A DNA stretch of 64,000 nucleotides from a virus (taxonomy: Duplodnaviria; Heunggongvirae; Uroviricota; Caudoviricetes). The translations under genes were made by a program, and so were the position numbers. Every line of letters begins with the position of its first letter. Within the stretch, counting starts at the first letter, position 1. Shown piece after piece: positions 30,446-30,677 of this stretch. The notes beneath the pieces were generated by a model. That model made no database searches, was not told where the DNA came from, and was given only the letters and a program-made list of their open reading frames with translations. The DNA lies in the IMG/VR virus record IMGVR_UViG_2529292852_000001, positions 96,714 through 160,713 of that record; one strand, written 5' to 3'.

Positions 30446-30490
30446 AAGCCTATGCTCACGCACAGACCCCAGCATATATGATATAATTTT

Positions 30491-30677
30491 ATCGTATCTA
30501 CTCCGAATATACGATACAGGAGCTGGTGATATTATCGACCAAGTTTTTGATTAAGCGTCGCCACGAACTGTATTGCCGTACAGTAGGATAGACGCATTAT
30601 CGCCAGTAACGATCGTGGCTGATATCCAGCTACCTTGCTCCTTACATAGTGAGTATAGCACGTTACTGGCTTTTTTT
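30491..30677 (+). ncRNA. Highly structured plus-strand sRNA with an anti-RBS loop
   Basis: TGaTATAAT at 30479-30487; several complementary pairs (AGCTGG/CCAGCT, CCACGA/TCGTGG, GCGTC/GACGC, GCCAGTAACG/CGTTACTGGC) and a final T7 tract. Confidence 0.65.

Follow-up and report, generated by a model that had tools for sequence, protein, structure and literature searches.

The window analysed here (that is, the whole stretch of 64,000 nucleotides) is part of a 180,095-bp record filed as viral in IMG/VR with 97% completeness. It contains a gene for a Rep3 initiator with 22-bp iterons, an IscB gene with a HEARO RNA, several TnpB genes and methyltransferase genes, and its homology is to the megaplasmids of L. 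salivarius. When ten proteins were scanned against PHROGs, the sole structural-type match was a faint one to a terminase small subunit (E 5e-4), which sits under a strong RNA-ligase match. Given the Rep3 initiator with its iterons, the IS200/605-type genes, the methyltransferases and the megaplasmid homology, the record is probably a megaplasmid rather than a virus. The HEARO/omega RNA (29495–29713, minus strand; 119 bits) lies directly upstream of an IscB-like open reading frame (ORF) (28464–29438, minus strand; 324 amino acids with RRXRR plus HNH), and this insertion of RNA and ORF is absent from the otherwise collinear region of the plasmid of L. salivarius ZSA5.

The minus strand carries almost all genes of the window, and at least 15 near-identical minus-strand promoter–leader units (TTGCAT-N17-TATAAT) occur at approximately 4.3–33.3 kb, with a AGAGTAACGTTA site in the spacer and a second copy near the ribosome-binding site (RBS). 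Repressor-controlled establishment regulons are known from p576 and pLS20, and the cassette promoter array found here resembles them (PMC8708921). Some of the cassette units are separated by linker repeats of approximately 240 bp, and the element under study (hereafter E; 30479–30677) lies, as the earlier note had observed, between two of these linkers (30226–30478 and 30681–30929, approximately 75% identical to each other). Its neighbours are the linker repeats and cassette genes (a 335-amino-acid gene upstream and a 79-amino-acid gene downstream), and after E comes a linker repeat and then another promoter. In PLSDB, the linkers were found only on the ZSA5 plasmid, in nine places. The RNA minimum free energy of the linker at 30681–30900 is strongly asymmetric (−62 kcal/mol on the minus strand versus −33 kcal/mol on the plus strand), and its fold does not go beyond that of shuffled sequences on either strand (z −1.2 and +0.1). 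Three T-to-A differences relative to ZSA5 are common to both linkers (30378/30381/30388 and 30825/30828/30835; GAGGAG to GTGGTG on the minus strand), a pattern that indicates concerted evolution or gene conversion among the copies within each plasmid.

The comparisons described below support the view that E, a gap of 200 bases on a megaplasmid of Ligilactobacillus salivarius, is the gene of a small, folded RNA whose family has not been catalogued. The Rfam search that the earlier note had proposed left E without a match: Rfam 15, run over the whole window at the gathering threshold, gave none within 30479–30677, relaxation to E≤10 yielded two chance-level matches only, both outside E, and the same search with the paralog Z (see below) gave no match. 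No Rfam ribozyme or riboswitch model matches E, and the unknown ribozyme or switch that the earlier note had offered as an alternative would have to be of a new class; no tRNA or tmRNA was found by ARAGORN, and no ORF lies downstream on the plus strand. A coding role was also considered for a 70-amino-acid minus-strand ORF and for peptides of 19–28 amino acids, and it was rejected: these have no family match and no proper start, and they run through the terminators or are frame-broken in the paralogs. An ORF behind the conserved GGTGAT was likewise set aside, the codon there being ATA in E and M5 and the members differing by 1-nt indels.

Paralogs and conserved helices

E is 100% identical in the L. 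salivarius ZSA5 plasmid (NZ_CP123973): no substitution separates the two records over 30396–30690, whereas 4.6% of sites differ in linker A, 9.6% in linker B and 4.7% in the promoter unit. A weak internal match within the record revealed a short paralog, S (2273–2385, plus strand; approximately 95 nt), which has an TGTGCTATACT box, a canonical terminator and two hairpins that flank CUACUCCUCU, and which is flanked by a CPBP protease gene on one side and a convergent gene on the other. Its longer ZSA5 counterpart, Z, aligns to the minus strand of E over most of its length; relative to Z, S has a deletion of approximately 60 nt and for this reason is without the pseudoknot core. S is a self-contained small RNA-like unit and a deletion derivative of the E family. 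A covariance model (R1) built from E and Z scores Z at 131 bits, E and its duplicate at 122 bits and S at 31 bits, and it located three more diverged copies on the ZSA5 plasmid, namely M4 (64 bits), M5 (58 bits) and M6 (38 bits). The duplicate of E on ZSA5 sits in an inverted duplication of the ends of that record. In the ZSA5 record, which is labelled linear, RepB, TnpB, the 79-amino-acid and the 335-amino-acid genes are inverted at both ends (15.8–26 kb and 150–166 kb), either as a real terminal inverted duplication or as an assembly artefact.

All family members are known from these two closely related records. Model R1 detected no member on the L. salivarius plasmids S35, pLMP1046, SNK-6 p1 and S96, and a 17-bit match to it there proved to be coding sequence rather than a member. 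Blastn of the element, linker B, S and Z against PLSDB matched ZSA5 only; nothing useful came from a search of a phage collection for homologs of E, or from IMG/VR when queried with an exact 30-mer, the family pattern or the neighbour proteins of E; and scans of metagenomes and GTDB with the arms of helix P_d (described below) returned 35 matches, all of them due to chance. No neighbouring gene is constant across E, M4, M5, M6, Z and S: the paralogs lie beside a glutaredoxin gene (M4), HicAB (M5), a TnpB gene (M6) and a CPBP protease gene (Z and S), M6 and Z face convergent genes, and M5 is followed by a gap of 270 nt before the next gene. The slot for a protein cassette in which the earlier note had placed E is thus no property of the family, the paralogs of which occupy other contexts.

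Five further short plus-strand units (16546–16696, 32109–32217, 33317–33400, 33478–33580 and 33650–33725) have TGnTATAAT/TATACT boxes and strong intrinsic terminators and face away from the cassette promoters. Model R1 detects none of the five; the unit at 33317 carries CAUCACCU, like the conserved AUCACC of the family on that strand.

As several complementary 6-mer or 5-mer pairs are expected by chance within 200 nt, the earlier description of E as rich in pseudoknots required comparative support. In a four-member alignment of E, M4, M5 and M6 in plus orientation (A7), the five helices comprise 35 pairs, with 92% pairing; 16 of these pairs show compensatory changes, compared with 0–4 compensatory pairs in slid controls and with an observed value that no shuffle reached. 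Between E and Z, 20 pairs are 95% paired with 6 compensatory changes (slid controls, 0). Because all members come from two related records, this covariation is drawn from four to five paralogs. The comparison establishes the family, its helices, the strand that folds and the conservation of the two sets of signals described below; Watson–Crick covariation would be compatible with a single strand of DNA that folds, too.

The helices are given here in plus orientation. The 5′ helix H1 (GTATC/GATAC, 30494–30498/30513–30517, with a 14-nt loop) consists of five pairs that are 100% paired, one of them covarying (C-G/U-A), and its loop sequence is different in each paralog. The 5′ hairpin of the earlier note is present and conserved in this family register, whereas the longer 8-bp register (TATCGTAT/ATACGATA, 30490–30497/30509–30516, loop CTACTCCGAAT) exists in E only. 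P_b (30553–30559/30591–30597, which contains GCGTC/GACGC at 30555–30559/30591–30595) pairs at 96%, shows C-G/U-A covariation, includes a single U.G pair and encloses the hairpin P_i (30567–30572/30579–30584; 100% paired, two covarying pairs, one G.U), which has the conserved loop AGGATA. P_c (GCCACGA/TCGTGGC, 30560–30566/30613–30619) has seven pairs, is 96% paired with three covarying pairs, shows two compensatory changes between E and Z, and competes with a local hairpin (30615–30621/30627–30633). The arms of P_d (GCCAGTAACG/CGTTACTGGC, 30602–30611/30661–30670) covary: they differ in every paralog with their complementarity kept (10 bp with one U.G in M4, a perfect 13 bp in M5 and 8 bp in M6); MAFFT shifts this arm of M5 by one column, the true arm being the perfect 13-bp complement. 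Since P_c crosses both P_b and P_d, the fold would be a double pseudoknot. All four of the interleaved pairings first pointed out are present in E and three are conserved through compensatory changes, but AGCTGG/CCAGCT (30521–30526/30626–30631) is confined to E. Between the helices, invariant alignment columns at 30525–30549 mark unpaired conserved motifs (GGTGAT at 30525–30530 and a T5 run at 30544–30548).

Signals on both strands

Over the same coordinates, the RNA fold of the plus strand reaches z = −4.7 versus −1.9 for the minus strand. The plus strand carries an extended −10 box of TRTGn type (TATGaTATAAT, 30477–30487, in which TGATATAAT is read at 30479–30487), which the earlier note had recognized as the element's own, and an equivalent box is in place in M4 (TATGcTATACT), M5 (TATGcTATAAT) and M6 (TAAGcTATAAT). 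A TRTGnTATAAT-type box is kept in three of the four full-length members, M6 being without TG (replaced by AG) and having in addition TTGATT-17-TATAAT on the plus side. The distance from the box to H1 is 6–7 nt in M4, M5 and M6 and 2 nt in E. The plus-strand transcript, which we call RNA-A, would be expected to start near G30494, approximately 7 nt after the box, and the 8-bp hairpin would therefore lose half of its 5′ arm. At the other end, the T7 tail noticed earlier is present (30671–30677) directly after P_d, with which it forms a terminator-like 3′ end of RNA-A, and a T-run follows P_d in the same orientation in E, M4, M5 and M6; as a terminator this end is unusual, with a 10-bp stem closing approximately 48 nt.

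Two further features bear on the choice of strand. P_d can form only in a plus-strand molecule, given that its arm at 30661–30670 lies upstream of the minus-strand start, and three genuine wobble pairs (in P_b of M6, P_i of M4 and P_d of M4) are G.U in the plus strand and A.C in the minus strand. An interim view, based on a 22-position match to the cassette promoter, the cassette RBS 10-mer, an A7 tract and the signals of Z and S, had taken the minus strand as the sole product, and was dropped on the covariation of P_d and the polarity of the wobble pairs. On the strength of P_d covariation with its T-runs, the plus-only wobbles and the conserved promoter box, we consider it supported that the plus strand carries a gene for a non-coding, pseudoknotted RNA, equipped with its own predicted promoter and a stem-plus-U-run end, and in this respect the earlier proposal of a structured plus-strand RNA gene was well founded.

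The minus strand has signals of its own, which the earlier note had missed: a second promoter box and a terminator are new here. TGCTATACT is invariant on the minus strand in all six family members, mostly as TRTGcTATACT. In E, this extended −10 box (cGTGcTATACT, 30652–30662, minus strand, with TAGAAA at −35) lies inside the loop closed by P_d, and a promoter scan places a −35-like hexamer 17 nt from it in E and M4 (TAGAAA-17-TATACT with TG) and in M6 (TTGAAA-17-TATACT). Z and S have no promoter box other than this one in minus orientation, and each finishes with a canonical terminator of the same sense; the core helices are kept in Z via a compensatory change of its own, and Z has signals in the minus orientation only. 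The minus strand of E also fits the cassette-promoter pattern AGTAACGT-NN-TATAMT-NNN-TATGTAAG exactly (22 specified positions, 0 matches expected); local alignment of E with the cassette units is not significant against shuffles (39/500). The predicted minus-strand intrinsic terminator (30442–30467) consists of an 8-bp stem (30467–30460/30455–30448) with two G.U pairs that are A.C on the plus strand, a GUGA loop and U6 (30447–30442). It falls within the stretch that shows 100% identity to ZSA5, and same-sense terminators are found in M5 by scan and in M4 and M6 by eye. From the minus extended −10 box and the minus-specific terminator, a convergent transcript (RNA-S) is predicted that would start near 30645, end at 30442 and overlap RNA-A. 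Alternatively, the invariant AGUAUAGCA may represent a motif of the RNA and not a promoter.

A proposed sense/antisense RNA pair and its alternatives

We propose that E is a member of an uncatalogued structured-RNA family and produces a sense/antisense RNA pair, in which a plus-strand RNA acts through its fold and a minus-strand RNA modulates it; we judge the chances of this reading to be about even. RNA-A (approximately 184 nt, 30494–30677) would be read from the plus strand off the TRTGnTATAAT promoter and would fold into a hairpin at the 5′ end, a double-pseudoknot core formed by the crossing of P_b, P_c and P_d, and a stem-plus-U7 end. RNA-S (approximately 204 nt, 30645–30442) would arise from the second extended −10 box inside the terminator loop of RNA-A, overlap RNA-A by approximately 150 nt and stop at the minus-specific terminator. 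RNA-A may act via its conserved three-dimensional fold by binding a putative protein or small ligand, and RNA-S may set the level of RNA-A by duplex formation and/or transcriptional interference. We infer from the conserved signals and fold that both promoters fire, where the transcripts end and how the pair would function, and, given that no neighbouring gene, partner protein or target is consistent, the function suggested for RNA-A is a guess.

The earlier note had favoured a trans-acting repressor that silences several cassette mRNAs, in which the loop of RNA-A (CUACUCC) would pair with the Shine–Dalgarno (SD) region GGAGUAGAUA of these mRNAs and block translation. The reading is attractive. 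TATCTACTCC (30495–30504, plus strand), inside the H1 region, is the exact complement of GGAGTAGATA, which is found on the minus strand at 4289–4298, 8742–8751 and 10331–10340, so that exact 10-nt complementarity to three cassette RBSs stands, at coordinates slightly different from those first given; near matches at 9277 and 42676 are among 14 one-mismatch sites, and one-mismatch complements occur at seven further sites by listed minus-strand ORF starts. Seven of the ten complementary bases lie within the hairpin loop, CCUUACAUA of E complements the TATGTAAGG start region common to 12 cassette promoters, the plus-strand RNA gene itself is supported, and an establishment regulon that is expressed transiently, like that of p576/pLS20 (PMC8708921), would be well served by an RNA that shuts it off. 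However, the other three complementary bases belong to the stem, and approximately one quarter of the 10-mers of E recur in the 180-kb record (46 in one orientation and 43 in the other), so it is unsurprising that one of them lands on an RBS; TGNTATAAT occurs 10 times in the window versus 6 ± 2.5 expected. The loop also differs in M4, M5 and M6, where it has no other match on either plasmid record, and the hybridization energy of E against 15 cassette leaders (Duplexfold) is no better than that of shuffles (14/100). Both complementary patches (the RBS 10-mer and CCUUACAUA against the start region) follow from the sequence that the minus strand of E shares with cassette promoters and RBSs. The complementarity of loop and RBS, at chance level for the 10-mer, looks coincidental, an E-specific by-product or at most an add-on; we regard silencing through the loop as unlikely and correct it here as unsupported.

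The same shared sequence could instead mean that the minus transcript is the functional product, a non-coding unit that derives from a cassette and combines a cassette-like promoter, a structured body, an orphan RBS placed in a hairpin loop and a terminator, and that the plus signals are incidental. The exact cassette-promoter match, which is expected by chance zero times, the cassette RBS 10-mer, which is oriented and ordered as in the cassettes, and the minus-specific terminator are consistent with this, as is the fact that the T7 tail is, on the other strand, the A7 tract found upstream of cassette promoters and of M4; Z and S are moreover units of minus orientation only, the core of Z being kept by a compensatory change of its own. 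Yet P_d covaries although it cannot form in a transcript starting at 30645, the wobble pairs of the full-length members favour the plus strand, the minus fold reaches only z of approximately −1.5 to −2, and E, M4, M5 and M6 all keep the plus box and the T-runs, all of which makes a minus-strand product, in our view, distinctly unlikely. A folded single strand of DNA (sso, or Frpo/ssi-like) that primes synthesis or early transcription on the conjugatively entering strand would account for significant DNA folding (z −4.7 for the plus strand and −3.0 for the minus strand) and for Watson–Crick covariation that extends outside the minus-strand transcript. The folding strand is the template strand of the neighbouring genes in every member, and for leading regions the transferred strand is reported to have this orientation (PMC11541004); functional sso elements are orientation-specific structured regions of a size similar to E (PMC4595007), and the setting resembles an establishment/anti-defence array (PMC8708921). 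Such a role is nevertheless very improbable, given that the ZSA5 record is typed as non-mobilizable, that the −35 and −10 boxes are not rebuilt by the predicted stems and their hexamers are unpaired in the predicted DNA fold, that complete promoter-plus-terminator signatures on both strands better fit transcription of duplex DNA, and that U.G-type wobble pairs are less natural in DNA. Finally, E could be what is left of a cassette or of a duplicated RNA gene that has lost its function and is decaying, since it is known from only two related records and S illustrates that large deletions can strike members; but 100% identity between two plasmids whose flanks differ by 5–10%, 16 covarying pairs across paralogs and signals that are intact on both strands in four diverged members leave hardly any room for decay.

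A sense/antisense pair invites comparison with known systems. Countertranscript loci of Gram-positive plasmids (pIP501 RNAIII/RNAII, pT181 RNAI and pAMbeta1) control a downstream rep gene by attenuation. Like these loci, E has predicted convergent promoters a couple of hundred base pairs apart on a plasmid, a predicted antisense RNA that is structured into stem-loops and has an intrinsic terminator, and a terminator in the sense transcript; as far as can be read from sequence alone, both promoter boxes and both terminators of the predicted convergent overlapping RNAs are conserved. Unlike them, it has no consistent gene after the sense terminator (the Rep3 gene is 4.5 kb away, and in E, M5, M6 and Z no rep gene lies directly downstream of the sense leader), and a kissing-loop antisense RNA would need nothing nearly as elaborate as its pseudoknotted core. 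With type I toxin–antitoxin systems of the par/Fst kind (pAD1 RNA I/RNA II), E shares two predicted convergent small RNAs and a Lactobacillales plasmid as their location, but it has no conserved small hydrophobic toxin ORF with an RBS (its ORFs are unconserved, and frame-breaking indels separate the members) and no shared central bidirectional terminator, its predicted transcripts overlapping almost completely. Firmicutes also have trans-acting small RNAs with C-rich anti-SD loops, of the RsaE and RNAIII type. The predicted promoter and intrinsic terminator of E on the plus strand (motifs present in four paralogs) and its CUCC-containing loop, able to pair with GGAG, recall these RNAs, whereas its putative seed is not conserved in the family and matches targets no better than chance.

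Salivarius-1 (RF03030) and HEARO/omega RNA (RF02033), both of which occur in the window, are like E covariation-supported RNAs of plasmids or mobile elements, with functions that are unknown or were found only recently, and HEARO, like E, contains a pseudoknot. Unlike these two, E scores against neither model and carries its own predicted promoter and terminator; it also differs from HEARO in that it matches RF02033 nowhere and has no fixed place by a nuclease gene, standing in no fixed arrangement with IscB or TnpB and having paralogs with varying neighbours. Approximately 1 kb from the salivarius-1 tRNA-like RNA (48053–48107) lies a gene (49154–51577, minus strand) for an 807-amino-acid protein that matches phage RNA ligase, polynucleotide kinase and phosphatase families (RNA-repair type). 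A last comparison is with EGeRS1/2 of pLS20/p576, which are 420–750 bp long and lie directly upstream of an RBS and operon, EGeRS1 being highly structured as RNA or single-stranded DNA and blocking read-through (PMC8708921). E is similarly a repeated stretch of regulatory-type DNA between small operons of apparent establishment/anti-defence type. In contrast to EGeRS, it forms a self-contained unit of 200 bp that no ORF follows, and its paralogs are found away from the cassette array.

Should the fold and the two transcripts of the proposed sense/antisense pair prove real, E would stand for a bacterial RNA family that is new, is supported by covariation and has a double pseudoknot, and for an unusual gene layout, in which the promoter of one RNA lies within the terminator loop of the other. 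The five diverged paralogs on one plasmid would then be natural mutants for structure probing. Families such as HEARO and salivarius-1 have repeatedly proved to be guides, mimics or sensors. The plasmid region of E looks like an establishment/anti-defence regulon, and to our knowledge RNA-based players are hardly known in such regions of Gram-positive plasmids. We can envision, as a doubtful but conceivable extension, an RNA-only two-component module of a new class, in which the double-pseudoknotted RNA would bind and neutralize, or would sense, a factor of the host or the plasmid (a defence protein, for example) and its convergent, fully overlapping partner RNA would switch it off, and which would have been duplicated and diversified five-fold on a single megaplasmid, with one copy recruited into the establishment/anti-defence cassette array.
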